From: Ginglymostoma cirratum
Taxonomy: Eukaryota
Reading direction: 5' to 3'
Assembly (NCBI GenBank): GCA_024137785.1
Contig: JAHRHZ010000268.1
Span: forward strand, 30,537,466 to 30,601,465
DNA length: 64,000 bases
Made by a program: the position numbers and the translations under genes. The notes beneath the pieces are model-generated. The model was given only the letters and a program-made list of their open reading frames with translations. It ran no database searches and was not told the origin of the DNA. This document shows positions 6,133 through 63,225 of this stretch, piece by piece. Within the stretch, counting starts at the first letter, position 1; every line of letters starts with the position of its first letter.

Positions 6133-6231
6133 GTTTTCTGATGAAGGGTCTAGGCCCGAAACGTCAAGCTTTCCTGCTCCTATGATGCTGCTTGGCCTGC
6201 TGTGTTCATCCAGCTCCACACCTTGTTATCT
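6133..6231 (+). mobile_element. PLE-terminus mini-element (Neptune family) inserted in Gypsy pol
   Basis: Nearly identical to the reverse complement of 48212-48307, the 3' end of a Neptune PLE. Confidence 0.85.
6135..6168 (+). ncRNA. Minimal type I hammerhead ribozyme motif (intact core)
   Basis: tt-CTGATGA-a-gggt ctag gccc-GAAACGTC-aa: CUGANGA box, stem II, GAAA, vestigial palindromic stem III, GUC site. Confidence 0.75.
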
Positions 6232-6892
6232 AAGTAGACAGATAGTGCAGGCGAAGACAGCATTGCAAACAGATGCCCTCTAGTCTGACTATCTAACTTT
6301 GTTAGAAATGTACAAGACATGATGAGGTAATAAATAGAAGTTTATTGGTTCAAGCCCAATAAGCTCTTCCATTGTTAAAAGTACCAGCTTAGACTGTTCA
6401 CTTTGAAGCAGAGCCAGTCATAGTGGTATTACATTAAAAATGAGGTGCTAATGGGGAAATTGATGTCCTTAGAATTGCTAATAAGGAGTCAACAATGACA
6501 GTGGAGGAGCAGAGATACTATAGGGAAATATTGTGCTGAGCTCATTAAATTCTGGTGGTTGGGCAAACCAGTACCAGATGGTATTCACAGTAGAGAAGGA
6601 AAAGCTCAGTTTTATGCTGGCTTTCGAACACTTTGAGACATATTTTGGAAATAGCCAAAACTAGCCTAAGCCAATTAACCTTTGTGCAGCTGTTTAAGGC
6701 CCAGAAGTCCAAATTATTTTTGTAGGGTGTGAACAGAACTTAAAGAGATTCTGTTGGAATTGAAAAGATAACATAGACAGAGACTAGGAGAATAAGTATA
6801 TTAATGTGTGCATTGATTTTTGTATTGAAATATTTATCACTCTTTGTAGTGAAATAAGAATGGATCACATTCCACTCATCTTGCAGGGGAAG

Positions 6893-7523
6893 TGTATAGG
6901 CTATGGATCATAATAACGTGACTGCAGATGTAAACTTATTGGTTACATGGAGAGAAAGAGAGTGAGACTCTGGAATATCATACCTGATGAGGTGTCAAAA
7001 AAGCTTCAAAAGATCGGACTTAGAAGGGAGAAAATACACTACAACTGCCATGGAACTGTTATCTTCCATGAATTATCTTGGATTGTGAACATGAAGGGAG
7101 TAAAGGCAGCAATCTGGTTGAGAGATATGATTTATACTCCCCCCAACCCTTTAAAGAATGCACAGAAACAGGAGTTAAAAGCCGGTTCAGCTTGATCTGG
7201 GTGCTAGTAGAACAAGGTGTGCAAGCAAGCTGAGCTACTCATGTGTACCAGCCTGGGTTTGACCTGTAACCCATATTAACTTGTTAACTCAAGAATACCT
7301 GGCTAACCTGGTTTCTTTTTAAACATAAATTTATTTGGTATGGGAGAGCGTTTTCCACAGAGAGGGGATTCTTTAGTATTTAAACTTGTTATGACCACCT
7401 GAGGGGTTGGATACATGAAGAAGGGGAGCCAGGTCACTCTGCTCATAAGGGAGCTTGGCGATTTGGAATATCCTCTGTGGAACTGAAATTAATTGGGAAA
7501 CCTCACCTGGGGTCTGATTGTAA
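6893..7523 (+). mobile_element. 3' LTR of Gmr1-like Gypsy element
   Basis: Preceded by purine tract aggggaag, starts TGT; 7281-7523 is similar to 160-401 but clearly diverged. Confidence 0.6.
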
Positions 7524-9802: not shown

Positions 9803-10037
9803 TATAGTAATTGTGGTGAGGTCAGCTTAGTGGACTTCATAGAATATGAGTTCCCTGATTGGGCAGTTAATTTGGTCCAATCAGGGAGCCCTGGCTGACA
9901 GATATAACCAGGACTGTCAAAGGTTCTGTTTGCACTTCGAGCTAGCTCTGAGGAAGCTGGATCAGTGTCAAGGACTCTCCACATGTAAATAAAGGGTGAC
10001 TTGGTGATGGGATACCAGCCTCCATGGAATTATTTCA
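9803..10037 (+). mobile_element. Short (about 235 bp) solo LTR, family A
   Basis: Ends ttatttCA; internal ccctgattgg...ccaatcaggg hairpin, gatataa TATA-like motif, aaataaa. Homologues at about 31598, 48103 and 54745. Confidence 0.75.
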
Positions 10038-10203
10038 GTCAACAATACATTGATTTGCATTGATGGAAAATAAGATTTAAATCTTTGAGGCAAAGATTGA
10101 TAATTTGAGCAAAATCCATATAGGTTTAAAGGAGAGTTTAGCAGTAGTGATTAGAAAGATATTTTGATTGAAGAATCATTGATACTCTACTTATTTGTAC
10201 TGA

Positions 10204-14100: not shown

Positions 14101-14111
14101 TTCAGTTCACA

Positions 14112-15208: not shown

Positions 15209-15625
15209 TCAGCCTTCTGATTTCATTCTCATGTAGCCTATCTTGTCTTTCTTGAGTTTTTCTAGTACTTTTCTCTCTGATGTGTTCAGGGTATCCCATT
15301 CGTTCCTATGGCTTAGTGTGGAGGCTATAGTATGTTGGATGGCTTGTTGTGTTTTGCCCATGAGTCTTTTAACGTAGTTTCTAGGGCTCCCATGAATTCT
15401 GGAACAAAAATAAAGTTGCTGGAAAAGTTCAGCAGGTCTGGCAGCATCTGTGGAGGAGAAAACAGAGTTAACATTTTGGGTCCGGTGACCCGTCCTCACA
15501 ACAGCCAAATGAATTCTCACATGAATTCTGTTCTGTTCGCATCTTTGTGGTTATAGTTCAGTCCACAAATTAGGACAGCTTTCTCAGTTTCTGTGAGTCG
15601 TCTGCTGGATAGGTTTCTTATCCAT
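15209..15625 (-). mobile_element. Inverted N-terminal segment of a Poseidon/Penelope-type PLE
   Basis: Minus strand: TWIRNLSSRRLTETEKAVLICGLNYNHKDANRTEF...TLNTSERKVLEKLKKDK, homologous to 62211-62610. Confidence 0.8.
15402..15503 (-). mobile_element. PLE-terminus mini-element with decayed hammerhead, 11-bp TSD
   Basis: Reverse complement gttgtgaggacgggtcaccggacccaaaatgttaac...; catgaattctg at 15391-15401 and 15520-15530. Confidence 0.8.
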
Positions 15626-17250
15626 GTCAAGCATTAAAAAACTCAAGAAAAAAAATTATAATAACCCAACAGTGAACAAAGGGTGCATGATAGGCATTAT
15701 GAACAAATTGGACTACCTTGAGAAAGCACAGGCACTGCTTGCAGATACAAACACTTACCAACAGGTGGTGATAGACCCAACACTGCAGCTCGGAAATAGG
15801 ATCACCCAAACACTGAAGAGACTAAAGGATGCAGGACAGATAACCAAGATGTACTACATGAGAATGAAAACAGAGGGCACAAACACCCCCTGCTTCTATG
15901 GACTCCTTAAAGTACACAAACCAGACATCCCCCTCAGACGCATTGTTTCCCTCCCAGATACACCCTCGCACAAACTGGCCAAGGATGTACAACAGAGAAA
16001 AAACATCTAGTCGACAGATCACTCCATTGCATCCACTCAACCCAATAATTCCTCAATGCTCTTAAGCACATAAAAATCAGCAACGACAAGATTATGGTAT
16101 CCTTTAAAGTCACTGCATTATTCTTGTCAATTGACATCCCACTAACCAAAGAAACACTGGTTACGTTACTAGGGAAAGCAGGAAAGCTACCAGCAGTTCC
16201 ATCAGCAATGACAATATACTCAAACTGCTAGACTTGTGCCTTACTGCACACTTTGTCTTTAATGGTCAAGTATACAAACAGATGAATGGCATACACATGG
16301 GGCCACCCATCTTGGGACTCATCACAGAGGCAGTCATGCAAAGACTAGAACACACCACCGTCCCCCTCATTCAACTTAAACAGTGGATCCGGTATGTGGA
16401 CAACACGTTTGTCACCATTAAATGCACCAAACACATCACTTCATCAATAAAGTATTTGTCAGGATTAAATTCACAAGAGAAGAAGAAAACAACAATCAGC
16501 TTCCATTTCTGGACGTCAGAGTTGAACGTGTGACCAATGGGGACTTCCAAACCTTGGTATACGGGAAAGCAACCTACACTGACCAAATCCTCAACTTCCG
16601 CAGCAACCACCCCAACATCCATAAACAAAGCTGTGTTAGGACATTATTTTAATGGGCCATCACTCACTGCAACACGCCAGAGCTGCCAGGAAAGAGGAAG
16701 AGCACTTATGCGAAATCTTTGCTATGAATGGATATCCCCTCAACTTCATCTGCAGCTGCTGACTAAATAGACAAATTCAAAAGGACACAGTATGCCCTAA
16801 CACACTGGCCACACTGCCCTACATCAAGAACATATCAGAACTGACAATGAGATATCTACTTCCACTAGGAATCATGGTAGCACACACACTTAAACAAACA
16901 CTCACAAGGATTAAAGACTCCATACCCATGACATGCAGAACGAACATAGTTTACAAAATACCATACAACGACTGCCACAAACATTACATTGGACAGACAG
17001 GAAGGAAACTAGCCATCAGAATACACGAACATTGGCTAGCAGCAAAACAACATGACAAACTTTCTCTAATAACACTCAACAATGAAGACCATTGGGTTCA
17101 CTGGGACAATGTAACCACAGTTGCCCAAGCTAAACATAGACATGCACGGGAATTCCTGGAGGCATGGTTATCAACCCATAATGCAATCAACAAGCATGTA
17201 GACTTCAAACCCATATACAAACCCAGACAGAACAGAACAGTAGTGAACTG
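15626..17250 (+). mobile_element. Poseidon/Penelope-type PLE, RT + GIY-YIG endonuclease, frameshifted
   Basis: NKGCMIGIMNKLDY, FYGLLKVHKPDIPLRRIVS, YKQMNGIHMGPP, WIRYVDNTF, LPFLDV, NIVYKIPYNDCHKHYIGQTGRKLAIRIHEH, AREFLEAW. Confidence 0.93.
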
Positions 17251-25102: not shown

Positions 25103-25778
25103 TGACATCCCCACTTTGCCTGTGCAAAGGATTGTCCTGCTGTGCAGTTATGCCCTCACAGGATGAAAGATAAGAGCATTGCCTGCCCTCTATTGAAAAG
25201 CCTGTTGTAGTCAAGGAGAACAAATAGCTGCAGGAGAGAATGCCAGGCATTTTCCCTAAATATGTGGTCACATAGTCTATGACCAGACAAGCTCAGTCAG
25301 TGGAGCTTCAGACAGCACTGTAGGGTGAAGACCTGGCTCCAGTTATCTGTAAACTTTCGTGGACATCTAGAAGGCTGCAAAGAGGCAATAAATAGAATTT
25401 CCTTGTTAGCAGCACTACAAGTTTAAAACAGCAGCTTAGACTGCTCACACTGAAGCTGAGGCAGAAGCAATCCCTGAACACTACTATATTTAAAATGATA
25501 TCTGATGAGGAAATGGCAACCCTCTCACAGCCCTGCATATGAGGAATGGACAGTGATCTCATAAGGTAGTGAGCTATCTGAGAGAAATATTGCAGCTAGC
25601 TCACAAAATATTGGAGGCATGTCAGTATCTGCAAAGTCTGAGTCTATGTCAGCCAGCATTTTAACTGGTCATGGCTGCACAGGGATTCGGTAAGGCTTTA
25701 CAGAACCTGCCGTATCTGCAAAGCTGTGGCAAAACCCAAATTTGCAATGAGACCTGTTTCTATGATTCATGTTAGAGA

Positions 25779-25986
25779 CAAAAAAAATTACAGATGCTGG
25801 AATCCAAAGTAGACAAACAGGAGGCTGGATGAATACAGCAAGCCAGGCAGCTTCTGGAGGGAGGGAGACGTCAACATCTCAGGTATAACAGTCCTGAAGA
25901 AGGGTTATACTCAAAACATTGACTGTTCCTTTCCTCCAGATGCTGCTTGGCTTGCTGTGTTCATCCAGTGTCCTGTCTGTCTACCT
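25779..25986. mobile_element. Palindromic PLE-terminus mini-element
   Basis: Arm agtagacaaacaggaggctggatgaatacagcaagccaggcagc and its complement gctgcttggcttgctgtgttcatccagtgtcctgtctgtctac; centre cCTGAAGAagggttatactcaaaacattgac (decayed hammerhead). Confidence 0.8.
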
Positions 25987-36129: not shown

Positions 36130-36208
36130 ACTGCAGAAACAAAAACTGAAATTGCTTGAAAAACTCAGCAGCTTTGGCAGCATCTGCTGGGAGAAAGCAG
36201 AGTTAATG
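36130..36208 (-). mobile_element. PLE-terminus mini-element fragment
   Basis: aaacaaaaactgaaattgct...aactcagcagctttggcagcatctg...gcagagttaa. Confidence 0.7.
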
Positions 36209-37889
36209 GGGTGACTGCATGATCTTTATTAAACGTACTGGATTTTCTTTCCATCGATTTTAATTTAGATAATACATCCTCCTTACAAAGTTACTGTCTG
36301 TGCTCCATCCAGGTGATAGCTAATGCCTAGGTGATAAAGAGAACAGCGTCCCCCTGTAAGTTTCTGATTTACTTTGATAGAACTGTTTCTGTAGTGTGCA
36401 AGACAACAGACTCAAAGTATGAGTATCTCTTCACAACAAGATTTCCTACGGTTAAAAGACAAGCATTTTGAATTTTCAATTTGAACCAATGATTGTTACT
36501 TTACTAAGGAAAATTGTAAGTCGTGAAAGAAGCCGAATGAAATAGAATCATGATTTATTCAATTGAGAGTTATATGTAATAAGAATGCCTTTACCAGTAG
36601 AAGGCAGCCAAAGCAATATATTATCTGTAGCCTGAGAACATGATGGTGAAATAGATTGATTCATTATATGAATACACTCTCATTTTGTGCTATATGGAAG
36701 ATTGCTCATAGATATTAAACGTTAATTATAGTCGTTTAGTCAATAAAATGTTTGAGGATTACTCACACTTTAAAGACTCAAAGCAATAAACTTATAGTGC
36801 TGATGGTTTAATGCTGCCATTATTTTGATGTTGTTTTAGTACATTTCAAACTGTTGCATACAAATATATGCATTAGGAGCAAGAGTAGGAGTATGAATCT
36901 GAAATGTAGACAGTATTCTGGAAGAGATCTCACCGAAGCTTTACAGAACCTTTTCAAAACATCTTTACTTTTACATTACATTCCACTTGAAATAAGAAAA
37001 ACATTCCACTTGCCATCCGTATAACCTGCTGTATTTATACCATTACCTTTTGTGATGCATATACCAAAACCTGCTAGAACAGACTAGAACACAAGTTGCA
37101 CACTATTGTAAGATTTGAAGAAGCCACAACATAGTGTTTCAAATATGAATGTTGTAAGATTGTTATTTTTGGAAGAAGTTCAGAGGCAGATAGACAGGCT
37201 GCTGGACGCAGAGAGAGGCTGCTTCAGTGGTCTGCTTTGGTATTATGGGACTTCATTTCCATTTTAATAAAAACTGAAAAGCCTTCCAGCCCTGACTGCT
37301 CACATTCCATGCATTCTAATACACTGCCATGCCTCATCCATTCCCCCACATGTTCTCGCCTACACCCATGGTCTTCATGCCCTGATGCCAAGCTTGGCCC
37401 ACACATCCACACTCCTAACGTGAATCTCTCATGTTTCCTGCACACAGTATTCACCCATATACTCCATATGACTCCTCATGTACATCAGGCCAAACTATGT
37501 TCCCCACTCAAAATCTATGACCCTCATTCCCCCAAGATAGGCTGTGACACCTCCATACCCATTTATTCATTATACACTCAACAGAAGCAATGAATGCTGT
37601 AGGGACTGTAGTAATTCTATAAAATTTCTTTCATTGATAACTTTCAAGTTTCTGTTAAAAATCGTCTTCACTTTATGTATGCCAATCATCCAGATTCTTA
37701 AAAATATCAATAGTTGAAACTGCAACCACTTGAAATCTCTTAACCTTGTGTAAATAAATATTGTGAAATTGCAATAGTGATCAGAGAACCGGAGCTGTCA
37801 ATCAAATAATGTTTTCCTTAGTGCTCATGTGTTTCAAAACAGTAATAGATTTCTGGGATCAGTCAAAAATACATAATGAGGCTTAGCTG

Positions 37890-40324: not shown

Positions 40325-41595
40325 AAAGAAGGTAGGTATGGTTGTTGGGGATCATTATTCCTGACTTTGGAAATCATTCAGGAGTACTTTAGAGTAAATA
40401 TGTTCTAATCAACCTGTTCAGTGATGTTATTACACACCTCCAGAGCATATAGGACCTTAATCCAGGCCACCTGGCTCAAAGGTAGTGACACTACCACTGC
40501 ACCACAAGAGCACCCAAGATCCTCAGGCTAAATGGAACAATTTTCAACTACTTCATCAAAGATCTTCCTTCAGTTGTAAGGTCAGAAGTGGGGATGATTG
40601 CTGATCATTGTACAGTGGTCTACCCAATTCACAGTTCCTTAAATACTGAAGCAGTTCATATCCAAAGGAGAAGAAGTTGGACAATGCTTAGCTTGGGCTA
40701 ACAAATGACTAGTAACATTCACACCATATAAGTGCCAAGTAATAACCATCCCTAACAGGAGAGAAACTAACCAGCTCCCCTTTGCATTAAATGGCATTAT
40801 CATCACTGCATCTCCTACTATCAACTTCCGGGAGAGGAGGGGTTACCATTGACCAGAAGCTGAAATGGACTGGTAACATAAACAACAAAAACAGAAATTG
40901 CTGGAAAATCTCAGCAGGTCTGGCATCATCCGTGGAGAGAAATTAGAATTAACATTTTGGGTCCAGTGACCTGTAATATAAATATTCTGACCATAAGACC
41001 ATGTCAGAGGTTAGGTATCCTGAAATGAATAACTCATGTCCTGATTCGTCTTTGTGTGTCTACCATTTACATGACATAACTCAAGAATACAGAAAAATAT
41101 TCCCATTTGCCCGAATGAGTGCAGCTACAGCAATGCTCAAGATTTTAAACACAGTCTAAGGCAAAATCAGATATCTTTACTGCCACCCATTCACATCCTT
41201 CAACATTCACTACCCCCACCCTCAATGCACTGTAGTAGAAATATATACCATCTACAAGATGCACTGCAGCAACTCACTAAGCTGCTTTGGCAGCATCTTC
41301 CAAATCTAAGACATCAATTGGCTAGAAAGACAAGGGTAGCAGAGGAATATGAAAAAGAAACACCTCCTGCAAATTTCCCTCTGAGCTACAGATGAGCCTG
41401 AATTACCATTCTGTCATTGCCACTGATCAAAATTCTTGAACTCCTTTCCAACAGCACAGTTAATGTAAATTCCCCTCCATGGGCAGCAGCAGTTTAAGAA
41501 GGCAGCTCGCCATGCTCTTTTTAAGAGTAATTAGGGATAGGCTGGAAATGCTGGCTCAGCCAGTGATGTTCATATCCTGTGAATGAATAAAAAAA
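40325..41595 (+). mobile_element. Zenon-like CR1-group LINE 3' part, old; contains SINE (40400-40511) and PLE mini-element (40883-40972)
   Basis: aggtcagaagtggggatgattgctgat, atctacaagatgcactgcagcaactcac, tail gctggctcagccagtgatgttcatatcctgtgaatgaataaaaaaa. Approximate TSD gtaacataaa/gtaatataaa around the mini-element. Confidence 0.85.
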
Positions 41596-42463
41596 GTAGT
41601 TGCTGCTAGCATCAACTTGCTTACAGACTATATAGGATCAGGTAGTGGAGAAAGATAAATGAGACACTGATCACTGCAGGAATTTTTCACTCTCCCACAT
41701 GCACAAAAGGATAGCAAGCAATTTAAATAGTTCAATTTCCTCTTTCATACCAACTTATTTCTGGTTACAGTCTGAGAACACAATACTTCCTCAGGACTAC
41801 ATTGAAGTATCAGCCTTGAGATTTGTACTCAAGTGTTTGAACACAGAATCATTTAACTCCAAGGCAAACGCTGTACACTGAGTCACAAGTGACACCAGTA
41901 GTAGGAAGAACGGGGGGAAACATTTTTCTGTGGGGCTGGACGGAGTAAAATTGCATCTTCCAGACCCACATTGAAGGTTTCTGTCGCTCTGTCACAATCT
42001 CTTCAATACCTCTCTCACAGGGCAACCCTAAAATCTCCTGGGCATTTACTTGCAAGCTGCCAGGTGAGTAACACTATCTTCCCAATGCATTGCTCATCTT
42101 CATGCACAGAATAGCAATGTTGGGTAAATAACTACGTTTTCAGTCCCCTACCACCAACCCCACACAACTCCTCCTATTTGTCCAAAAGTATTGATACCTT
42201 TAAATCAAACACTCTTGTGTTCTTTGCGAATGAGAAACATGAGCAACCAAGTGGAAATAATTGCAATAGGTTCTGTTGCATCTATCCCTTTGACTTTGGG
42301 AAATAAAGAAGTTGGATGAGAGTTGTCGGATTCAGGTTGGCCATGGGATGGAGCACTTACATAACCACAAGCTTTTTCTGTCTATGGACATCATAATGAT
42401 TTGACAGTATCCCACTACTGCTTAGTGGCATATTGTGATTCACATGTCAGAAGGGACCATGCC

Positions 42464-42558
42464 ATTTCTGAAGAAGGGTCTAGGCCGAAAATGTCAGCCT
42501 TCCTGCTCCTCTGATGCTGCTTGGCCTGCTGTGTTCATCCAGCTCTACACCTTGTTAC
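42464..42558 (+). mobile_element. PLE-terminus mini-element (Neptune family), near-intact hammerhead
   Basis: atttCTGAAGAagggtctaggccGAAAatgtcagc...acaccttgtta. Confidence 0.8.
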
Positions 42559-42927
42559 CCCATCCTGCAATATATATTCTTTTTATTCTGTACAGATACT
42601 GCATGCTTACAGAAAGGAAGAACTGATGAACTTTTTGGCAGCTTGAGAGAAAATACTTGACAATTATATGAAGTCAAATGGTGAAAGATTGAATGTTGAG
42701 ATAATATTTACACACTTTTATAATAATTTTTGACAGAAATACACGTTACAGACATTGTCCTCCTAAGATAATCACCATTGTTGCAGTTTATACTATTTAC
42801 AGGAGCATAAGCGAATCCCCAGCTAATGGCTAATATCTATGTACAATAAAATACATCTACTATACAATTTGTATATTTCTTCAACCTGATCCATTGATTC
42901 CATTATGAAATTTGCTCACTTCAGTAA

Positions 42928-43534: not shown

Positions 43535-43690
43535 AAATAAAGTACTGCAGATGCTGGAGATGTGAAACAAAAACAGAATTTGCTGGTAAAATTCATCAGG
43601 CGTGGCAATATCTGTATGAAGAAAGCAGAGTTAACTTTTCATCAGAATGATGAAGAGTCTCTGGGCGCAAAACGGTAACTATGATTTATT
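43535..43690. mobile_element. Partly palindromic PLE-terminus mini-element
   Basis: actgcagatgctggagatgtgaaacaaaaacag...gagttaac ttttcatcagaatgatgaagagtc...caaaacggtaact. Confidence 0.7.
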
Positions 43691-43789
43691 TGTACCTCGC
43701 CCTGCAGCCCTGGCAACATTCACTGTTGAGATCTAGCACTGCTAGTCAATCAGATTAGCCAGCAGCTCTTGAAGGTCGGCTTTCTTTTC

Positions 43790-45747: not shown

Positions 45748-45888
45748 ATATGGAGGTGCCGGTGTTGGACTGGGGTAGACAAAGTGCTGCTCCTTCATGA
45801 CGTCACGTGATGAAGGAACAGTGCTCCAAAACATTGTGATTTCAAATCACCCGTTGGACTATAGCCTGGTGTCATCTGACTTCTGAAT
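45748..45888 (+). mobile_element. PLE-terminus mini-element, further family, decayed hammerhead
   Basis: gctccttcatgacgtcac gTGATGAaggaacagtgctccAAAAcattgtg...ttggactatagcctggtgt; short inverted copy at its left. Confidence 0.55.
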
Positions 45889-48211
45889 TGTTGAACAAGA
45901 GGAAGTGTTGCTTGGATAAGGAATCAAAATTTCCACATTTGATCCTTAAAATGACAGAGGAAAAGGAGCAACTTGAAATGGAGTAAACTTGGGGAAAATT
46001 GAAGAGCATTTTGGGTTTTCATACTTATTTTAATGAGAAATGTTTTTTAACAGGAAAGAGCAAGTATAATGTGTGACTATTTAGTACATTTGATTGACTA
46101 AAGCCTAATCACTAAAATGCGGTCTACCAGCAGACCTAATGGCCTATAAAAAGACTAAATACATTCCCTTTCCTTGGAGAGATCAAGCAAACACCAGGTG
46201 CAATACATTCATGTTTCAGTATGACAAACAAGATTGTGAATCTTCGTCAAACCCAGATTTTAAAGTGTTGTTAACAAAATCATATTTCCAAAGAGTGAAG
46301 GAGCAATGCAGATTTCTGAAATTTGTGCCTTCGGACATTTCATTTCTCAATAGATAAACAATTGAATGGAGAAACTGCTGTGTATTACATTTTATACACA
46401 ATTTAAATCTGGCAGGTAGACTTCATTTCTGGTTTATAGAGTTTGCTTATGCATTGTTATTTTGAAAGTTTTGTAAAAGAAAACACTGCAGACCCATATT
46501 TTTTTCTATGCAATGCAGCTGAACAAACAGCTGACACAATATTGTCAATATTAGTTCTGTGCTTGTTTTGACTGAATTTTGCTGCAGGTTTCATACCAAA
46601 AGTTTAGGTTAGAGCTTTATCATTAAAATAAGATGTTAAGTCATAGTTGAGTTGTAAAATACAAGACAATCGTGTACGTTACTTCAGAATATCTGAAGCA
46701 AGATGAAACATGCTCTCTATAATTTGTATTTCTTCAATAAAGAGGACGAGATGAAATGAACATCATTGGTAGTTATAAATCTTACCACTTTGCAAATTTT
46801 GCTTTAAGATTCTTGTAGTTGGAAAACATGTACACAGTATCAATAGTAAATTGTTATCAGAATGGTCCCCTTTTAATTAAATCACAAGTGATACACAGTG
46901 ATACTAATGGTGGATGACAACACCTCCATATGTAGCCATTTTCTGTATTGGTTTGTTTTATTCGCTGTCTGGAAGCAGTGTCTGCAACCACATGCCACAG
47001 TCAGAGTTATTTATTGATCTTTGGCATTTGTGTTCTAAGTAAAACAGATGTCTTTTTGGTTGATACAATCAAATACTACTTACATTTCCTTCTAATTAAC
47101 ATTAGAATTGCCTCCAGTATGAAGGCAATTCAACTGCTTTATGTACATACTGGCAAGTTTAAATCTTATTTTTGCCTCTAGTGTTGCTTGACATTTTTTA
47201 AAAAAAATGTAATTATAGTGTACTATTGAAGCCCAGGTTGTTCATCTTTATATCTGTGGTGCTTTCTCTGTCACTGGTTTAAATGGTAGTATTTTGTGTT
47301 TTCCTGAAGAATTGTATGCAATGCCTCTTGAACTAGATATAAATGTATAAGAAGATGATGTTACAAGGGTCAATTTTTGACATTCATTTTCAAAACTATC
47401 CCAGAAAACTCATAGAGCTCAAAGTTCCTGAATGCCAGGTTGAGAGCTGTGTGCACTCAAGAAAGACATTTACTGCTGAAATCCAACAGGGTTGACATCA
47501 TCAGATCTCCCAGGGTGAACAACTTCCATGACAACGGTGAAATGAGAGTGTGAATCTCTCCGGAAGGAAGCCAGGTATGCCAAAGGGGGCTGAAAAATTT
47601 GGGAATGGGATGGAGCATGATGTCAACACTACATGAAGTGAAAGACTGAGCAGGCACCCAGAAGAAAGAGCAAAATAGCTATTACAGGAAAAAGTACACA
47701 TCCAACGTCTCTGGGGCTTTGTGCATTTGCAATAAGATCTATATTAGTTGAGGGAGCATTGACATTGGTGGAGTATTGCTTAAAAGAGTACGCTGATCAT
47801 CATGACATGAAAAGATTTTTGAAGCCACCGAGGTGAACTATAGACAAGGATTAAATGGACTAAATCCCCTTTATTCACGTGACTGTATTTCTGCTCTTAA
47901 GGATAACAACACCACCTATTAATGCTGGAAAGAACATTTTCAACAATTTCTCAGGTATGAATCTGCAATAGCAACTAATGCTTGCCTGGTTATGCCCTGT
48001 GCCCTGTGGGTGAACCACCAGTAATGGATAATCTGCAATAAGTAATCCATCAGGTGAAAAACACAATGTTTCAGTGAAGATGGCATTCCAGCTGAGGGCA
48101 TCGGAAATAACTGCAGAGGCCGATATCCCGTCACCAAGTCACCTTTTATTTACATGTGCACAGTACATAGGCTCTAAGCAGTCAGCTCAAAGCCAACCCC
48201 TACAATGAGGA

Positions 48212-49058
48212 GATAACAAGCGTGGGGCTGGATGAACACAGCAGGTCAAGCAGCATCATAGGAGCAGGAAAACTTGACGTTTCGGGCCTAGACCCTTCAT
48301 CAGAAATGGGGGAGGGGAAGAGGGTTCTGAAATAAATAGGGAGAGAGGGGGAGGCGGATAGAGAATGGATAGAGGAGAGGATAGGTGGAGAGGAGGCAGA
48401 CAAGTCGAAGAGGCGGGGATGGAGCCAGTCAAGGTGAGTGTAGATGGGGGGGTAGGGAGGAGATAGTCAGTCCAGGGAGGACGGACAGCTCAAGGGGGCG
48501 GGATGATGTTAGTAGATAGGAGATGGGGTGTGGCTTGAGGTGGGAGGAGGGGATAGGTGAGAGGAAAAACAGGTCAGGGAGGTGGAGATGAGCTGGGCTG
48601 GTTTTGGGATGCGGTTGGGGGAGGGGAGATTTTGAAGCTTGTGAAATCCACATTGATGCCATTGGGCTGCAGGGTTCCCAGACTGAATATGATTTGCTGT
48701 TCCTGCAGCCTTTGGGTGGCATCACTGTGGCATTGCAAGAGGCCCAGGATGGACATGTCATCTGAGGAATGGGAGGGGGAGTTGAAATGGTTCGCGACTG
48801 GGAGGTGCAGTTGTTTGTTGCGAACTGAGCGCAGGTGTTCTGCAAAGCGGACCCCAAGCCTCCCCTTGGTTTCCCCGATGTAGAGGAAGCCACAACAGGT
48901 ACAGCGGATGCAGCATACCACATTGGCAGCTGAGCATCTGCCTGATGTGGAAAGTCTTCTTGGGGGCCTGGGATTGGGGTGAGGGAGGAGGTGTGGGGGG
49001 CAGGTGTAGCACTTCCTGAAGTTGCAGGGAAAAGTGCCATATGTGATGGGGCTGGAGC
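48212..49058 (-). mobile_element. Neptune-type PLE 3' part (Cys linker + GIY-YIG + terminus), 15-bp TSD
   Basis: GTFPCNFRKCYTCP, NVVCCIRCTCCGFLYIGETKGRLGVRFAEH, TLQPNGINVD; cccctacaatgagga at 48197-48211 and 49059-49073. Confidence 0.93.
48274..48307 (-). ncRNA. Minimal hammerhead ribozyme motif in PLE 3' terminus (intact core)
   Basis: Reverse complement atttCTGATGAagggtctaggcccGAAACGTCaa. Confidence 0.78.
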
Positions 49059-49779: not shown

Positions 49780-49900
49780 CAGAGCTGGATGAACACAGCA
49801 GGCCAAGCAGCATCATGATGCTACTTGGCCTACTGTGTTCATCCAGCTCTACACCTTGTTATGTCAGATTCTCCAGCATCTGCAGTTCCTACTATCTCTG
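49780..49900. mobile_element. PLE-terminus mini-element collapsed into a loop-less palindrome of about 70 bp
   Basis: agagctggatgaacacagcaggccaagcagcatca|tgatgctacttggcctactgtgttcatccagctct, then acaccttgttat...ccagcatctgcag. Confidence 0.8.
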
Positions 49901-50542: not shown

Positions 50543-50740
50543 TGAAACAAAAATATTGATTGCTGGAAAAGCTCAGCAGGTCTGGACCATCTGTGAAGAG
50601 AAATCAGAGTTCTGAGAAAGGGTCACTAGCCCTGAAACATTAACCCTGATTTCTCTTCACAGATGCTGCCAGACCTGCCGAGCTTTTCCAGCAATCTCTA
50701 TTTTTGCTTCTGATTTATATCATCTGCAGTTCTTTTGGTT
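50543..50740. mobile_element. Palindromic PLE-terminus mini-element
   Basis: gattgctggaaaagctcagcaggtctgg...gaagagaaatcag / ctgatttctcttcacagatg...agcttttccagcaatc around gttCTGAGAAagggtcactagccctGAAAcattaac. Confidence 0.85.
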
Positions 50741-51819
50741 TTTATAATGGACTGAACACTGGGTCCAGATGACTGAAAGGCATTTTCCCACCAGATTTTG
50801 TTTTCTGAACTCTTGAATGGACAATGCTCCAGGGAATAACAAAGAAAATTCTTCAAAGACGCTCTGAACCTCTCCTTGATGTGGGATATAATTGACATTA
50901 ATATCTGCAATGAGTTTGTTACCAATTATTGAAAATGATGACAAGCTTTCCATTCAGCTGTATTACACTTTTAGTCACAACAGCTTAATGATGAGGTGAA
51001 GCAGCAGTAGTTAGAGGAAAAAAGATATCAAATCCTGCACTCCAGATCTCACTACCTTGAGGACCATTCTGATCCACTGGTGAGTTGAGAATCAATCTGT
51101 TTATGAAGATCAATGGCAGAAATTCATGGCCCTGAGTAGACCTTATTCTTGAATAAAAGACAGTTGTTGCTGATGATGACCACATTAAAAAGCCAGTGCA
51201 AGTAGCAGCATAGGCTTGCATAGAAGATTGTAGCTGCAGTTGAGATTGGAATCAATATAACCCATGAACCTGCTTTCAGTGTCAGAAAAAAAAATTAACA
51301 TACTTAAATGCCAGCAAAGATAAACGCTTTGCCATGTAAATAATAAGGTGACTAATTGAATGACAGTGATACAATGACTATTCACTGGCAAAACAGTCAG
51401 GCTTGGCATCACTTTGCTTAATCTAGATTGGCAAACTGTTGAAGGTACCCCACCTCCCTCCATTTGCCATGATCTTCAGCATCCTATTTATCACTTTCAT
51501 TTTCAATGTCCTTTCCTCACAAGTCCCTTCACACAGACTCAATAGTGATACATCTCCCTTACAGGTTTCCCCATATGCTTAAAACTCTGCCTCTCCAATT
51601 TTCTCCAATGAAAACCATTTATTTGACTACCTTTTGTAAACTCTATTTTGGGCTTGGTGTCCATTTGAATTTGGTTAGCTATGTGAGCTGGTTTGATATG
51701 TTTTACTGCATTATGGTTGTTATTTACATGCTTAGTATTGCTTGGATTCTCCTAATAATCATCACTACCCTGTGTCCAATTTGCATTGTCAGTTGAATAG
51801 TTAATGAATAGACTGCTTT

Positions 51820-54411: not shown

Positions 54412-54742
54412 GCTTCTGTATCTTTTACCTGATAGAAGAGGATGTAGGAGGTCATTATCAGGGTGCGATAGGTCTTTGATGATGTTGGTCACCTTTCCGC
54501 GACAACGAGCTGTGAAAATATAGTCCATGGATGGAAGGTTGGCTTCTGTGATGGTCTGGGCTGTGCACACCTCCTCCTGTCATTCCTTATGGTCCTGGGC
54601 CTCAAATAATGTAACTTGCATGTATGCCTCTACGTCTTTTTGATCTGTACACCCTTTTCTTGAAATGATCTGCCTGTGCCACTCATAAACAAAGCTTTTC
54701 ACTGTCGGTGTATGTGACAACAAACCAATCAATCAATCAACC
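54412..54742. mobile_element. Rex1/Babar LINE 3' end with inverted 5' part
   Basis: 54412-54600 minus: AQTITEANLPSMDYIFTARCRGKVTNIIKDLSHPDNDLLHPLLSGKR. 54601-54742 plus: 3' UTR aaagcttttcactgt...gtgacaacaaac(caat)n. Confidence 0.75.
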
Positions 54743-54744
54743 AA

Positions 54745-55059
54745 TCTGGACCTCATAGAAAATGAGCTCCCTGATTGGGGCAATTAATTAGGTCTAATCA
54801 GGAAGTCTTGACTGACATAAAAAAAGTCAAGTGTGAGGGACAAAAACAAAAGTTGTTGGAAAAGCTCAGCAGGTCTGGCAACATCTGTGCAGAGAAATCA
54901 GAGTAAATGTTTCGGGTTCGGTGACCCTTCCTCAGAACAGGGATACTGACACTCTGGTGCCTGACTCTAAGTATGAAGCAGGACTATAGTTAAGGGCTGT
55001 TCATATGTAAATAAAGTGTGACTTGGTGATGAGATACCAGCCTGTATAGAATTATTTCA
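54745..55059 (+). mobile_element. Short solo LTR, family A, with PLE mini-element inserted (54841-54938, TSD aggga)
   Basis: gagctccctgattgggg...gtaaataaagtgtgacttggtgatgagatacc...attatttca. Insert reverse complement: gttCTGAGGAagggtcaccgaacccGAAAcattt. Confidence 0.8.
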
Positions 55060-56129
55060 TTCATGGTAAGTACACTGTAGCTCTTCTTTGAATTCGAAAT
55101 CACCAATTCATGCAAACAAGTCGAATAGCTTTCCAGGATTATTCACTCATTTCTTGCAGAGGGATATTTTCTTATCAGAGCAACTAACAAATCAACAACA
55201 GAAAACCAAGGACAGAGAGAGTGCAAAACACAGCAGGCCTGTCTGGGAGCCTTTTTCATAACACACTCACAGTTTCTAAACCCCAGCCAGAACTGGTTCA
55301 CTACATTTTCCTTTCTTTTACCAACATTCTCTGTGATTGGCTGGCTAGCACCAAATAGCCCTTGATTGATCAATTCAACATCCAACCAATTGCCAGCCCT
55401 GAGCCTCGAACACCTTGGTGCTAAAATATCTAAAGTGTTCTCAGGACAATAATTGACCTGAAACTATCTTTTCAGGCCAGTTCCAGTAATCAAAGCTAAG
55501 TTGTTTGGTCTGTCTTCCTTTCCATAACAAGCTGCTGCTCAAAGTTCAAAGTTTGATTCTCAACTTCAGCTCACACTTCCAAATCAAAAATAAAAAAAGA
55601 GAAAATTAAATAATGAAGTTCTCAACAGTATTTTAATGAAAAATGCAGAATCAACTGGCTAAGCACTGTTTGACAGTTTGTGTGGTCTTCATTAAAGTAA
55701 CGGTACATTAGAAAAATGTCTACTGGGGGAAAAAATTAACTTCTATGCATAGATGTCATTTGATCAATTGTTTCAATGACACACAGTGATCTCAAATACA
55801 TTATATTAAATAATAAATGTTTTCTCAGTCCTGCATATTACTATAATGTTTCATGAATTTCAAACTTTATTAAATTTCTTTTATCTGTTTAAACAATGTT
55901 CAACTTTGTCAGCAGCAGTGATACTTCCTGTAACACTGAAAAATATATTTGTCGCAGTGGTATTTTTAAGTTAGCATACCGCAAAAATTGCTAATAACAA
56001 ATTCTATATTTAAATATTTCAAAATAAGGAATTTCAGAATGTCACACAATATTTCAAATTGTGAATGACTGTGGTTCTTTACCTAAAAAGGTTGTATTTC
56101 TATTTTCTCTGACAATGCTTGCATCTACT

Positions 56130-57031: not shown

Positions 57032-58340
57032 ATAACACAGTGTGGAGCTGGAGGAACACAGCAGGCCAGGCAGCATCAAGGGAGCAAGAAAGCTGACGTT
57101 TTGTATTGGGACCCTTCTTCAGAAATGGAGGAGGGGAAGGGGGCTCTGAAATAAATAGAGAATGGGGTGGGGGTTGGGCTAGGAAAGGTAGGTGGTATGG
57201 TGATAGCAGGTAGGTAGTGGTGGGGATTGGTCAGTGAGGTGGGAGGAGCGGATAGGTGGGAGAGAAGATGGACAGATCAAGGAGGCGGAGATGAGAGGGA
57301 GGGTTGGTCATGGAATGAGGCCGGGGAGGTGGTGAGATTTTGAAACTGGTGAAGTCTACATTGAGACCATTAGGTTGTAGGGTTCCAAGGCGGAATATGA
57401 GGTGCTGCTCCTCCAGTTTCCGGGTGGCATCGTTGTGACACTGGAGGAGGCCCAGGATGGACATGTCATCCAGGGAGTGGGAGGGGAAGTTGAAGTGGTT
57501 TGCGACTGGGACATGTTGTCGTTTGTTGTGAACCAAGCATAGTTGCTCTACAAAGTGGTCTCCGAGCCTCCACTTGGTCTCACTGATGTAGAGGAGGCCA
57601 AATCGGGAACAGCATTACAATAAACCACATTAGCAGATGTGCAGGTGAACATTTGTTTGATGCTGAAGGTTTTTTTGGGGCCTGGAAAGGAGGTGATGGG
57701 GGAGGTGTAGGGGCAGGTGTAGCACTTCCTGCGGTTGCAGGGAAAAGTGCTGGGGGTGGTGGGACTAGCAGGGAGTGTGGAGCGGACGAGAGAGTCACGG
57801 AGAAAGCGGTCCATCCGGAAAGCAGATAAGGGTGGGGAGGGAAATATATCCTTTGCAGTGGGGTCAGATTGCAGGTGGCGGAAGTGGCGAAAAACGACGC
57901 GTTGAATCTGGAGATAAATGGGCTGATACATGAGGACAAGGGGAATTCTGTCTTTGTTTTTATTGCGGGAAGGGTTGTGAGGGCTGAGGTCCAGGAAACG
58001 CAAGAGATGCGGTCGAGGGTGTTTTTGACCACTGATGGGGGGACGTTGCGGTCCTTGAAATACGAGGACATCTGGGAGGTTCGGGAGTGGGACACCTCAT
58101 CTTGGGAGCAGATGCAGCAGAGGTGGAGGAATGGGAGTAGGGGATCGCATTCTTGCAGGAAGGTGGGTGAGCGGAGGTGTAGTCTAGGTAGCTGTGGGAG
58201 TCGGTGGGTTTGAAATAGATATCAGTTTCAAGGTGGTCACCAGAGATGATGACAGAGAGGCCCAGGAAAGAGAGAGAGGTATCAGAGATGGTCCAGGCGA
58301 ACTTGAGGTTGGGGTGGAAGGGGTTAGTAAAGTTAATCAA
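57032..58340 (-). mobile_element. Neptune-type PLE 3' half (RT thumb, Cys linker, GIY-YIG, terminus)
   Basis: LSFLGL, DIYFKPTDSHSYLDYTSAHPPSCKNAIPYS, TFPCNRRKCYTCP, FTCTSANVVYC, LEEQHLIFRLGTLQPNGLN; decayed hammerhead at 57094-57126. Confidence 0.93.
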
Positions 58341-60142
58341 CCATATAAAGAGTATGAGGCTAGTATTTCTCCAGCAATGGAAGACTACTCAAATTTCTGA
58401 AGAAGATTGAAAGACCTAGTGAGAAATACAGAGTTCCAATCAGTGCACAAATATGTAAGGGTGAGGTGGCAATCTGATGCTGATGGACCTGAATCATCCG
58501 AGGAGCAGTAATGTTCAACGTTAATGATCTTGCAACAAAGTTTCCATGGAAGGTAAGTACAGCATGAGTATTTCAAGCATTTTCTGTCTTTATTTCAGAT
58601 TTCCAGCATTCACAGTACTCTGCTTTTGTACTCTTTTTTGATTGATTTGAGTCTTTATTTCATGGTGTTTAGCTTTTCTTAAAATCTATATAGCTGGACA
58701 GAGCTAATTCACATCTCCAGAACATGTTAAACCTCATCATGTGTGGCCATTGCTGTCAAGCAATGACTCTTTTGTGCATTGACTGGATCCTTAGGTAAGG
58801 TAGATGTTGCTAAATAAAAATTTCAAAGTTAAGTTATCCCCAATGTTTCCATCAGTTGCGTGACACTACTGTATATAACCTGATTGCTGTAGCACAGGAT
58901 ATTAATGGTGAGCTCAATGAATATTATGGCATAAACATTTAATGACAATTGTTTATTTAGCAAGAGCTGCCTAAGGTAGAAATTGTCTGCAGGAGTTGAC
59001 ATAGCCTGCTGTAAAGCAAATTTATTCTAAATAGCAGAAGTCTATTTTAAGAGGTTGTAGAAATGCTCGGCAAGCCAGTGGGTTTGGTTGCAAACGTTTC
59101 ATCACCCTGCTAAGTAACATTGTCCGTGTGCCTCCAGTGAAGCGTCGCTGTTCTGTCCTGCTTGTTATTTATATGCTTTGGTTTGCTGAGGTGGTTGGTA
59201 TTACTTACGGTTCTGTTTCTCAGTGGTTTGTACAGAGGGTCTAATTCAATGTGTTTGTTGATGGAGTTCTGGTTGGAATACCGGGCTTCCAGGAATTCCC
59301 TGGCAGGTCTCTGTGTGGCTTGTGCAATTATGGATGTGTTGTCCTCGGCAAATTTGTGTCTCTCATTGACCATGTGTAGTGAGAAAAGTGAGAATTGGTC
59401 TTGTCTCTTGGTGGTTAGTTGGTGTTCATGTACCTGTATTGTCAGTTTTCTTCCAGTTTGGCCTATGTAGTGTTTCTCACAGTCCTTGCATGGTATTTTG
59501 TATATTACACTGGTTTTGCTGATTTTGGGTGTGGGATTCTTTACGTTTGTCAGTAGCTGTCATTGGGTGGTTGTCGGTTCCGGGCTAATCTGATACTTAG
59601 GGGTCTGAGTAGTCTTGTGGTCATCTCTGAAATGTCCTTGATGTATGGTAGGGTGATTAGTGAGTCTGGTCGTGTTGTGTCTTCCTGTTGTGGTCTGTCT
59701 CGGAGGTAACGGCGGATTGTGCTTTTCAGGTATCCATTCCTTTTGAAGATTCCATATAGGTGCTTCTGTTCTGCTTTGCATAGCTCCAGCTTGATGCAAT
59801 GTGTTGTGGCTCATTTAAATAGTGTCCTGATGCAGCTCCGTTTGTGGGCGTTGGGGTGGTTGCTATGGTAATTGAGTATTTGGTCCATATGTGTGGTCTG
59901 TCTATGTACGCTAGTCTGGAGTTCCCTGTTGATTTTACATTCTACCATTACATCCAGGAAGGGTGGTCGGTTGTGGTTCTCTTCTTCTTTCATGAATTTT
60001 ATCCTGGTGAGGATGTCGTTTATGTGTCGATAGGTTTCTTCTAGTTTTGTGCATTTAATAATCACGAAGGTGTCATCTACACATCAGACCCAAAGTTTGG
60101 GTTGTATACTGGGGAGTGCTGTCCATACTAACCTTTGCATTC

Positions 60143-61655
60143 TGTATGGATTCTGGTTTGCTATCAGTAATCTGCTGATTTTTAGGTGGTTCAAGTCACC
60201 CCCAGATTCTTGGTTCTGACACTGGACTTAATTTAGGAATGTGAAGTGAAGAAGGCAGCAGACAGGTGTTTCAGGGCAAAGAATCTCTGCGTTTATTAAA
60301 TGCAAAGGTGAGTCACAAGAAATCACAAGAAATAAAAAGGCAGAAGTAATAAAACAAAGGGAAATAAAACAAAGGTGAATACAAATACAAGAGTTAAAAA
60401 GGCAAATTCAAAACAGTGGAACTGACAATATCAGTTATTAACTTAACACAGGCTAATGACTATTAGAAACTAAACAGTAGTTTCAAACACAGACATTTTA
60501 ATCTGTCTTCCTGACCTCGGGGTTTCTTGCACTGTCACCAACCCACTTTCCCCATCCTGCTAGCTAGGGTGGATGCTTTGGCCCTCGAAGAAATAGGCTC
60601 AACACTGGGGACAAACACAATTTTGAAATACAGCTGGCTATTTCCACTTGCTGTAGCCGGTGCTTCGCTGAAGACTTCGGATTGTGTTCAGTCTGGTTTG
60701 AGAACTTGGGTTTCCTTACTTTGCGATGGCTTTGCGAGCCAGTTTTCACCCCAGGAAGTGTCTGATGCCTTGTCAGTGATGTCGGTGGTTTTTGGAGGTC
60801 GTCAGGTCTGCTGGTCGTGGTCGGTTGTCGTTGGTTCCCCTGGTACGGAACAGGCCTGTTTAGGGAGGTTTCGGAGAGAAACTTCTCTTTCCTTCACCGC
60901 TGTGCTGGGCTCAGGGTCTCCAGTTATACCTAACCGCAGGCCGCCCCTAACCTCCTGCCAAATCTGTTGAGCCATTGTTCCTCCTCTCAGGGCTGAATGG
61001 GCTTTCTGAGTAATGCAGAAGGTGTGAGTGGATTTTTGATTCAGGTGAATGGTATTGATGGGTTTGGAATGCACTTGGATTGGGTATCTGTTCAGTTCAC
61101 CTAGTGGTATGAAGGTTTTTTTAAACATCCAAGGTGAAATAGGTTTGCATAGAGCACAATGGTGTGGAATGTTCAGTAACTTTGTGCCTGAGCACTGATT
61201 TGGAATTGAATGGGTTTATACCTGTGTAGGCTCCAAAGTTCTGAGGAACGGTCACTGGGCCCAAAACGTTAACTCTGATTTTTTTCTTCATAGATGCAGT
61301 CAGACCTGCTGAGCTTTTCCAGCAACTTCTGTTTTTGTTTAGGCTCCAAAGGGTCAGAAGTTGTTGAAATTGTCTGTTTCCTGCAGACTGGCTTGCATTG
61401 TTTTAGCTGAGGCATGAAATGGGGGGTTTTCCTTTGGTTTCAGTTAGCTAATCTCAGTCCCAGGCATCTACCTGTGGGCATGTATATATCCCAGTGTGTC
61501 CCAGCCAGCCTCGTCCTGGCTCAGTTGCAGCCCATGGTTTCTGGACTGCTGGTGACTTAAATTCAATATAATATAATTCCACAACTTCTGCCTTGGGAAG
61601 GGTTTAAGTCTAGGATATGTCCACAACCTGATGGGGATTTTTGCCCCACCTTACA
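60143..61655 (-). mobile_element. Long (about 1.4 kb) solo LTR, TG...CA, 4-bp TSD attc/atta
   Basis: Removing it restores the PLE RT sequence (cctttgc-atta-ctgcttctgc, antisense AEAVMQRL); antisense AATAAA near 60292. Confidence 0.8.
61238..61340 (+). mobile_element. PLE-terminus mini-element with about 12-bp TSD
   Basis: taggctccaaag at 61227-61238 and 61340-61351; begins gttCTGAGGAacggtcactgggcccaAAACGTTaac. Confidence 0.88.
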
Positions 61656-63186
61656 ATTACTGCTTCTGCAATCAGTCCTGATATTGGGGATCCCATTGAT
61701 GTTCCATTGATTTGTTTCTATATGCTGTCATTGAAGGTGAAGTGGGTTGTGAGGTACAGATCTAGTAATTTCATGGTGATGACATTATTGATGTTGTTGC
61801 TGTCCTGGGTTGCCTGCCTACTTGACTCGTCTGGCAGTGTGGCAATTATTTCTTTGGCTAGGTTGATGTTTATGGATGTAAATAGTGCTGTTACTTTGAA
61901 GGATATCATCATCTTGTCTTCTTCTATCCTGGTGTCCTTGATGATGAGGAATTCTTGGAATGAGTGGATGGTGTGTATAGTGTTGTTCGCTTAGTGTTTC
62001 AATTTCAGTTGTAGTTCTTTGGTAGGTCTCTATGTTGGTGTGCTTGGTAGTGAGACAATGGGTCAGAGGGGTCCCTTGGTTTGTGTACATTGGGGAGTCT
62101 GTAGAATTGGGGTGTGTTGGATCCTTCTGGCTTCATTTTTTGTAGTCTGTTTTGCTAATGTCTCCTGAGTTGTGTAATTTCTTTAGGGTCATTGTAATCT
62201 GGTTCCCTAACTATGGTGTCGGGTCTATCTCCATGTGTTGGTAGGTATCAGTACCTGCTAGTAGTGAGTTAGCTTTCTCAATGCTTTGAGTTCTATTGAG
62301 GATTACTGTCATGCATCCTTTGTCTGCTGGTAAGACTACAATGTTCCTGTCTTTCTTGATCCTTTCCAAGGCTTTCCTCTCCTCTGTGTTGAATGTGTTC
62401 CACATTCCTTTTTTGCTCAGTGTTGGGACTATCATCTGTCTGACGGTCTGCTGTATTTCTTCTGTGAGTCTGTTGCTCTTTAGTGTTGATTCCAGCGCAG
62501 CCAGGAAGTCAGTCTTTTTGGCATCTCTGTAGGTATAATTCATTCCACGTACTAGGACGGTCTTCTCAGTGTCTATAAGTGGTCGGTCCGAGATGATTCT
62601 AATCCATGAATCTGTGTTGTTTGTATCGTTGATGTGGTTGATTTTGGACAGTTTTTCTTGAAGGGCTATTCTTTACTTTGTTCTGGTATTTTGTTGTTGC
62701 ATGCTGATGGCTTGTTCCAGTGTGGATGGCCATTTCTGGTCAGTTGCGTTGGAGCACAGCGCTTTTTGACGTGCAGTTTCCCACTTGTATTTGTGGAGGC
62801 AGTTGAGGGCATTGTTGATCATAACCCTTACCATTGTGTAGCCATTCTGTTCAGCTGCCCTCCGTGCCTGTGGATTGTTGACAGGTAGTTTATATTTTAA
62901 GCTTTGTGGCAGTGCTTGCTTTCTGAGGCATTCGTGCAGGAAGTATAGTTCTCTGCGGATCACATTCAGTCGGATGGCATTTGTTTCCCAACTGTGGGCC
63001 AGTTTGAGGGTGTTGTGCCCCCATAGGTGTTTAAAGTTTTCGAAAAGATTTCCAACCGGAACTCCATCAACAAACACATTGAATTAGACCCTGCGTACAA
63101 ACCACTGAGAAACTGAACTGAAAGCAATGCCAACCATCCCAGCGAACAATACAAGCGGGACAAAACACCAATGCTTCACCGGAGGC

Positions 63187-63225
63187 GCACTGATGATGTT
63201 ACCTAGCGGGTGACGAAACGTTTGC
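63187..63225 (+). ncRNA. Minimal hammerhead ribozyme motif in Poseidon pLTR
   Basis: gca-CTGATGA-t-gttacc tagcg ggtgac-GAAACGTT-tgc: stem I gca/tgc, 6-bp stem II, NUH = GUU. Confidence 0.78.

Follow-up and report, generated by a model that had tools for sequence, protein, structure and literature searches.

The stretch analysed here, called the window throughout, comprises 64,000 nt of the Ginglymostoma cirratum genome (GenBank assembly GCA_024137785.1, contig JAHRHZ010000268.1, positions 30,537,466 to 30,601,465 of the forward strand) and carries coding Penelope-like elements (PLEs) together with many short repeats that bear minimal hammerhead ribozyme motifs. A preliminary description made from the letters alone had named 13 positions with CTGANGA-stem-GAAACGT(C/T) motifs or decayed versions of them, and all 13 do carry such a motif, far above chance. 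In hammerhead position numbering (C3, N7, G8, G12), the C3 of these motifs lies at 6138, 25894, 42468, 43647, 45807, 50612, 61241, and 63190 on the plus strand and at 15499, 48303, 54935, 57122, and 59126 on the minus strand. The strict pattern CTGANGAN{10,24}GAAACGT is matched 3 times in the window and 0 times in each of 100 shuffles. A structure-aware scan based on the core, stems I and II, and a CG-derived loop 3, with 12 Markov sequences as controls, gave 4 hits without core mismatch (0 in 12/12 controls), 9 hits with at most one mismatch (0-1 in the controls), and 16 hits with at most two (1-6 in the controls); the named motifs account for 12 of these 16, the motif at 43647 not being caught owing to its three changes.

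The repeats were sorted into families by self-BLAST and profile searches, for which the reversed window gave a single hit (E 0.65), and insertions were counted by taking every arm at E<0.001 plus partner arms. This resolves 16 insertions with 22 arms, or one insertion per 4 kb. Nine arms are additional to the 13 motifs: the CTGA core is absent from seven (36139, 40885, 58565, both arms of the pair at 49780-49896, and the left arm of each of 25773 and 50547), and the other two are the deleted left arms of 43540 and 45749. Weak profile hits at E>0.02 (47458-47519, 42563-42635, 38849-38892, 37180-37225, and others), six of which were inspected, were excluded from all counts. Where at least four families had been described earlier, the number is five (A, F, B, C, and E). 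The terminal 80 nt are ~64-77% alike among families A, F, and B, whose tails are also similar; families C and E gave no matches to A, F, or B in the self-BLAST and profile searches. Nine motifs had been described as standing alone, of which four (25893, 43650, 45807, and 50608) proved to be arms of head-to-head inverted pairs and the others were not pair arms. The insertions are listed below, with 5' ends measured from C3 = 0, the 5' edge of stem I; pLTR denotes the pseudo-long terminal repeat of PLEs, TSD a target-site duplication, ORF an open reading frame, RT reverse transcriptase, EN endonuclease, and UTR an untranslated region.

6135..6231, plus strand: family A solo pLTR end, 97 bp, with an intact minimal hammerhead (C3 6138), 5' end at -3 and no tail; weak TSD of 6 bp, its score reached by 8% of 400 controls
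15403..15502, minus strand: family B solo of 100 bp whose core is broken at C3 and G12, 5' end at -3; TSD 15387-15401/15516-15530, some extra bases lying at the junction
25773..25984: family F head-to-head pair, left arm (minus) with a tail and starting at about +10, right arm (plus) from -4/-5 with C3 25894 and G12 changed; TSD 25760-25768/25985-25993
36137..36210, minus strand: family B stub beginning about 2-4 nt ahead of the predicted cleavage site, coreless; 7-bp TSD
40884..40971, minus strand: family B stub beginning within stem II (+9); 10-bp TSD with 1 mismatch
42462..42558, plus strand: family A solo of 97 bp with changes in the G12 region, beginning at -4 to -6; without a significant TSD
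43540..43694: old family B head-to-head pair, left arm (minus) tailed and without stem II, right arm (plus) truncated and decayed; the junction is ambiguous and can be read as -2/+1 or as about +22/-7; no TSD seen
45749..45891: family E head-to-head pair, arms from about -4 and -2, right arm with broken core (C3, G12), left arm internally deleted; 9-bp TSD 45740-45748/45892-45900
48212..49058, minus strand: 5'-truncated, putatively Neptune-type PLE of family A with Cys-rich linker, GIY-YIG, 3' UTR, and intact minimal hammerhead (C3 48303); perfect 15-bp TSD
49780..49896: family A head-to-head pair, hammerhead-less, both arms from about +44, the right one tailed; TSD of 14 bp, perfect
50547..50743: family B head-to-head pair, left arm from the predicted cleavage site, right arm from -4 and tailed, the two joined via 4 stem I bases that they share; G8 of the core changed; TSD of 13 bp
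54840..54938, minus strand: family B solo, 99 bp, core bases intact, loop 3 CpG decayed, 5' end at -3, inside another repeat that resumes directly; 5-bp TSD, not significant
57032..58343, minus strand: 5'-truncated, putatively Neptune-type PLE of family A with RT thumb, Cys linker, GIY-YIG (frameshifted), and a minimal hammerhead with G12 changed
58565..58621, plus strand: old family B stub, ~30 nt of terminus plus tail (E=2e-5)
59051..63303: putatively Poseidon-type PLE of family C, minus arm near unit-length with broken RT-EN ORF, decayed hammerhead (59126) and no tail; arms meet at ~63047; plus arm of ~255 bp with intact hammerhead (63190) and a 40-nt tail; 13-bp TSD
61238..61340, plus strand: family B solo lying within the family C element, with a changed G12 and beginning at -2 to -4; directly abuts a TSD of ~12 bp

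The 5' ends of these arms are not randomly placed. Half of them (11/22) begin within -6 to +1, at -3, -6, -3, -3, -3 (range -2 to -4), -5, -4, -2, +1, -4, and -2; none begins between -7 and -142, whereas seven begin further in, at +9, +10, +27, +30, +44, +44, and +63, and four far upstream, at -143, -755, ~-1221, and ~-3924. Against a constant stop rate, the pile-up has a corrected P of 1.3e-8 by arms and 1.8e-6 by events, of 8.5e-7 and 7.8e-6 when the ambiguous pair at 43540 is left out, and of 5.4e-5 and 3.4e-5 when family E is left out as well, these values being corrected for 26 windows, with an 8-nt window picked after inspection of the data. Each arm end was placed with the help of a TSD, the sequence of the host repeat, the other arm of the pair, or a reference copy with an ORF, and is therefore independent of any knowledge of the upstream sequence. 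The boundary at the stem I edge is common to families A, F, and B and to the unrelated family E, and the five single-arm solos measure 97-103 bp. Random truncation lengths, which the preliminary description had named in advance as an outcome that would speak against its proposal, were thus not found. In families A and F, positions -5/-4 are occupied by a CA (A at -4 after C) that is initiator-like by the general initiator consensus. Run-off at the hammerhead cleavage site was also considered as the main source of the stubs and was rejected, only 2/22 arms being in agreement with it.

All 13 motifs lie on the sense strand, 60-110 nt inside the PLE 3' end, that is, the pLTR end, and motif, stems, and position together bear out the assignment as minimal type I hammerheads of PLE pLTR ends, as judged from the sequence. 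The ORF links proposed for four of the copies, at 48212, at 57032, and at both ends of 59050-63304, also hold. Within family A, 48577-49038 is 79% identical to the whale shark RT-EN protein P0001, which bears RVT_1 and GIY-YIG, the best protein relatives of the family being in whale shark (79%) and zebra shark (74%). A C-x4-C-x2-C linker is found in both family A ORF copies and in P0001; the Neptune clade is described as marked by a CX2-5CxxC linker between RT and EN (PMC8557442), and by this motif family A is classed as putatively Neptune-type. Family C, on the other hand, shows RT motifs and a C-terminal EN without the Cys-rich linker, its EN aligning to P0001 (E=2e-5), and it is by motif only that we class it as putatively of the Penelope/Poseidon type; among 84 candidates, none was a longer relative of its N-terminus. 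Linkage to RT/GIY-YIG is therefore seen for A and C, and the window has no ORF for B, E, or F; family B, with eight arms there, is represented by short arms throughout. Pfam searches matched GIY-YIG in 3/6 proteins, only P0001 scoring above the cut-off, and matched one of five raw window ORFs, the RVT_1 of an unrelated LINE-type piece (LINE, long interspersed nuclear element).

Several other features were observed around these elements. The family C element contains, at 60100-61700, ~1.5 kb of other inserted sequence with a 152-amino acid ORF (60515-60970), besides the nested family B solo. A second Poseidon-type relic at 15718-17245 has an EN 52% identical to that of family C and is without the hammerhead-bearing 3' end. 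In family A, an antisense AATAAA lies ~30 nt upstream of the hammerhead and is kept in both long copies (48325-48340 and 57144-57160), where it overlaps a splice-acceptor-like site on the sense strand. LINE-type relics occur at 783-1896, 20136-21439, 24020-25033, 28187-28697, and 44053-45021, of which 20981-21439 matches RVT_1; we take these relics to be of the CR1/L2 kind.

The anatomy of the insertions agrees with the proposal that they were made by PLE machinery, as seen in TSDs, tails, and inverted arms. Significant TSDs, with a score reached by at most 3% of 400 random controls, flank 10 of the 16 insertions and include the perfect duplications of 14 and 15 bp. Head-to-head inverted pairs make up 6/16 insertions, and a one-sided tail is demonstrable in five of the six, the tail of the family E pair being only inferred owing to the deletion of its left arm. 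Junctions and palindrome centres are different in every pair and make use of short microhomologies, for example the four stem I bases at 50608-50611. Over its last 21 nt, the family C tail agrees by eye with the beginning of the ORF-bearing arm at 19/21 positions; the template would therefore have extended ORF-ward, as described for A. vaga (PMC3846280). The inverted pLTR, the optional tail of 30-40 bp, the TSD, and the occurrence of solo pLTRs are shared with published units of EN-containing (EN+) PLEs (PMC3846280; PMC8557442), as are the RT-GIY-YIG order, the inverted 5'-truncated arm, the continuity of the one-sided tail with the ORF 5' region, and TSDs of ~9-15 bp. Unlike in those published units, both arms are often stubs here and half of the arms begin at one point. 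Internal deletions beside the centre are present in one arm of two of the six palindromes (43540-43694 and 45749-45891) and may reflect hairpin instability or a template jump. The PLE insertions within 48116-49194 and 54742-55063 both lie within members of one other repeat family, which also occurs at ~9805-10041 and 31600-31820.

With respect to the ribozyme itself, all core bases are kept in only four of the 13 motifs (6138, 48303, 54935, and 63190) and broken in nine, and the palindromic loop 3 is kept as well in only three of the four. Among the nine motifs without an ORF, the full core is present in two and an intact loop 3 in addition in one. G12, which lies within a CpG, is A in 7/13 motifs, and the CG of loop 3 has decayed in six. 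Core positions are changed at 14/143, compared with 76/786 in the non-core 3' part (P=1.0), or at 7/130 without G12 (P=0.14), so that the core being better conserved than its flanks, as had been expected, does not hold at the level of copies. The hammerhead motif is conserved at the family level, where the active parent depends on it, and undergoes neutral decay in the copies. The stem sequences differ among families and still pair, as seen in the scan without statistics; within family B, no stem covariation above shuffles was found. Both arms of the family E pair have G at core position 3 (45790-45815), and the template RNA may thus have had a broken core and still have been inserted. Monomer folds reached z ~ -2 in 2/8 stretches, both of family C, the remaining stretches being no better than shuffles. 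An Rfam search of the window returned no hammerhead family at E<=1, which is not counted against minimal hammerheads because these are without stem III; it also returned seven microRNA-precursor matches, all under the gathering score and explained by the palindromes. Exact-pattern scans of metagenome contigs, viral contigs, and prokaryote genomes gave nothing, as expected for shark DNA.

Together, these data lead us to a reading to which we assign a probability of about 0.6, namely that the short repeats derive from the 3' termini of PLEs of the Neptune and Poseidon types, are likely dead on arrival, and that their shared 5' edge at stem I likely corresponds to the start of the element RNA. 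The wider claim that they are stubs of autonomous PLEs is highly probable. PLE RT has been reported to prime inside the RNA at two adjacent sites, with the tail between them, and to cut and extend both strands (PMC11167929), and the PLE/Penelope transcript has been reported to start in the upstream pLTR (PMC2377424, PMC8557442). Given such a start, and internal priming by RT at a position just downstream of the hammerhead (PMC11167929), a pLTR-ORF-pLTR transcript would hold the priming site twice. Priming in the 3' pLTR would give ordinary copies of variable truncation, such as 48212, 57032, the family C arms, and the early-stopping stubs, whereas priming in the 5' pLTR would let RT run ~100 nt off the RNA 5' end and leave a fixed-length copy from stem I. 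Two cDNAs primed on both target ends and joined by microhomology would yield the palindromes, and the hammerhead would be a passenger in the inserted copies and then decay. Such first-pLTR priming with run-off to the RNA 5' end at stem I is put forward tentatively, at a little under even odds. As for the fate of the stubs, the minimal RNA of the anole Poseidon element PAc reaches +172 and its distal RT start lies at +111-118, the RNA needing ~55 nt beyond that start (PMC11167929); the stubs end at the RT start and would therefore lack the RNA binding region needed as a template. Hammerhead mutants of PAc still insert, cleavage not being needed (PMC11167929).

Several points weigh against this reading. 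The boundary is based on 16 events in one window, the arms of a pair are non-independent, and the 8-nt interval is post hoc. The initiator-like CA is a common dinucleotide and is partly fixed by stem I pairing. The solo at 42465 is nearer to the solo at 6135 (87/96) than to the ORF-linked copies (81/95 and 78/95), and family B shows only its short arms in the window, no ORF-linked copy being found there. For D. virilis, transcription is reported to begin ~120 nt upstream of helix I, from which an intron separates the start site (PMC2377424, PMC4209133), and the requirement for downstream binding is known from one anole Poseidon element and not from a Neptune element (PMC11167929). In a comparison with contigs of four related runs over 48160-48760, of which the best shares 0.29 of words and thus represents a relative, no pile of loose ends was found at the stem I edge among the rows listed, contigs detecting such junctions poorly. 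In favour of the reading, on the other hand, family A is covered continuously in the same contigs from the 3' end into the endonuclease gene, long family A copies being common in related genomes. Summed contig depth shows no obvious step at the hammerhead, although summed depth cannot rank parts of an element. In contigs of run X13, two joints (48304 and 48275) couple hammerhead position -1 to the first base past the predicted cleavage site, a geometry that is also that of the pair 50547-50743.

The preliminary description had gone further and proposed that the ribozyme-bearing terminus has become an independent SINE-like (short interspersed nuclear element) or retrozyme-like family without an RNA polymerase (Pol) III head. 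The last part is sound: the window has 0 tRNAs and no tRNA, 5S, or 7SL match in Rfam and, by the general box A and box B consensus, box B is found in 0/12 and box A in 1/12 short insertions. The independent family is without support, no tandem arrays, Pol III boxes, or solo clade having been found. In family A, the solo at 6135 agrees with the ORF-linked copy at 48306 (overall identity 90/96) at three diagnostic sites, namely N7, an extra A that follows the cleavage site, and one more, and the solo at 42465 shares both alternatives at the N7 and extra-A sites with the ORF-linked copy at 57125; given the mixed identities, these diagnostic sites, from four copies only, are weak evidence against a solo lineage. 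A self-propagating non-autonomous family would nevertheless account for the solos of 97-103 bp, for the fixed 5' end of 11/22 arms, and for the shortness of all eight family B arms, and it has precedents in the ability of PLE pLTRs to act in trans (PMC3846280), in the internal promoter of Penelope (PMC2377424), and in non-autonomous Chlamys PLEs, MRC1 among them (PMC8557442). In its most plausible form, family B, and perhaps E and F, would be a Pol II-driven PLE 'SINE' of ~100-140 nt with a short master, transcribed from an internal promoter with RNA beginning at the first base of the hammerhead and mobilised in trans by Neptune RT/GIY-YIG, with no tandem or circular stage. We consider this unlikely. 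A boundary in four families would require four parallel masters; an edge common to all four rather suggests that it arises from the PLE cycle as such. The full-size single-arm solos are tail-less in 5/5 cases and cannot template tailed copies, palindrome centres vary from pair to pair so that pairs are not copied as units, and there is neither a solo clade in A (four copies only) nor any tandem copy. Family B is the sole case that may have an independent master. A retrozyme-type cycle, in which hammerhead self-cleavage would give small circular RNAs for reinsertion, shares with the window the type I hammerhead and PLE origin of animal retrozymes (10.64898/2026.07.22.740005; PMC7229834), and two arms do begin at or beside the predicted cleavage site (50611 and 36208); this cycle is very improbable here, given that the ends lie away from the cleavage site in 20/22 arms, that the motifs are minimal rather than canonical with 9/13 cores broken, and that no tandem hammerhead unit was found, none of the four rows of Tandem Repeats Finder in the window falling at a hammerhead.

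Plain random 5' truncation of autonomous PLEs, with the boundary as a small-sample or ascertainment effect, is in agreement with the scatter of seven arms between +9 and +63 and of four far upstream, with the published view that most minimal hammerheads are single and probably truncated PLEs (PMC4209133), and with the lack of a family A depth step at the stem I edge (6.3M, then 4.8M and 5.1M in run X1, depth being unable to rank parts). The chance that this is the whole explanation appears small, because the constant-hazard model is rejected at a corrected P of 1e-8 to 5e-5, all profile-found arms were counted rather than core-bearing ones alone, and the ends were fixed by independent landmarks. 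Alternatively, the boundary could be a 3' splice site at which an upstream exon is joined to stem I and the cDNA ends or switches. The D. virilis pLTR intron is described as ending at the 5' end of helix I (PMC4209133), and AG is present at -4/-3 in F and probably in B; in A, on the other hand, there is no AG there, the nearest acceptor-like site lying ~26 nt upstream, yet A solos begin at -3 and -6, and copies keep G at -3 without a common upstream exon sequence, which makes splicing an improbable source of the edge.

As elements, the window copies are ordinary: hammerhead-bearing PLE stubs have already been described and are abundant in non-mammalian vertebrates. The minimal hammerheads of metazoan PLEs described by Cervera and de la Pena in 2014 are mostly single, 'probably related to truncated PLEs', form many families per genome, occur as opposite-strand pairs 100-700 bp apart, and reach thousands of copies in coelacanth and Xenopus; the window motifs resemble them in the core CUGANGA, one unpaired base, stem II, GAAA, a palindromic vestigial stem III, and a short stem I (PMC4209133). 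In the available text of that account, no shark is named and no 5'-end distribution of solo copies was found. The window elements are also like anole PAc in having two 3' ends, with and without a tail, a hammerhead just upstream, and insertion on both strands; fixed-length genomic stubs do not figure in the available text of the PAc study, and first-pLTR run-off is proposed here (PMC11167929). Animal non-LTR retrozymes are likewise non-coding, carry a type I hammerhead, derive from PLE pLTRs, and include reported monomer copies, but are defined by tandem units, each with a hammerhead, and by circular RNA, whereas 0/16 window insertions are tandem (PMC7229834; 10.64898/2026.07.22.740005). Our literature search, outside which lay most subscription journals and Repbase, found no report of shark PLE stubs or of a 5'-end pile-up at stem I. 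The useful point is therefore the sharp 5' boundary at stem I common to four families, which bears on where PLE RNA starts, how the pLTR is regenerated, and how the hammerhead is used. More likely than the PLE 'SINE', though still at slightly under even odds, is that the stubs preserve, across the genome, the position at which PLE RNA begins and the traces of first-pLTR priming. Should the boundary be borne out in the whole genome, the many stubs in sharks would serve to map both features without experiment, and would explain why repeat catalogues may mistake such stubs for SINE-like or MITE-like families (MITE, a miniature transposable element with inverted repeats).

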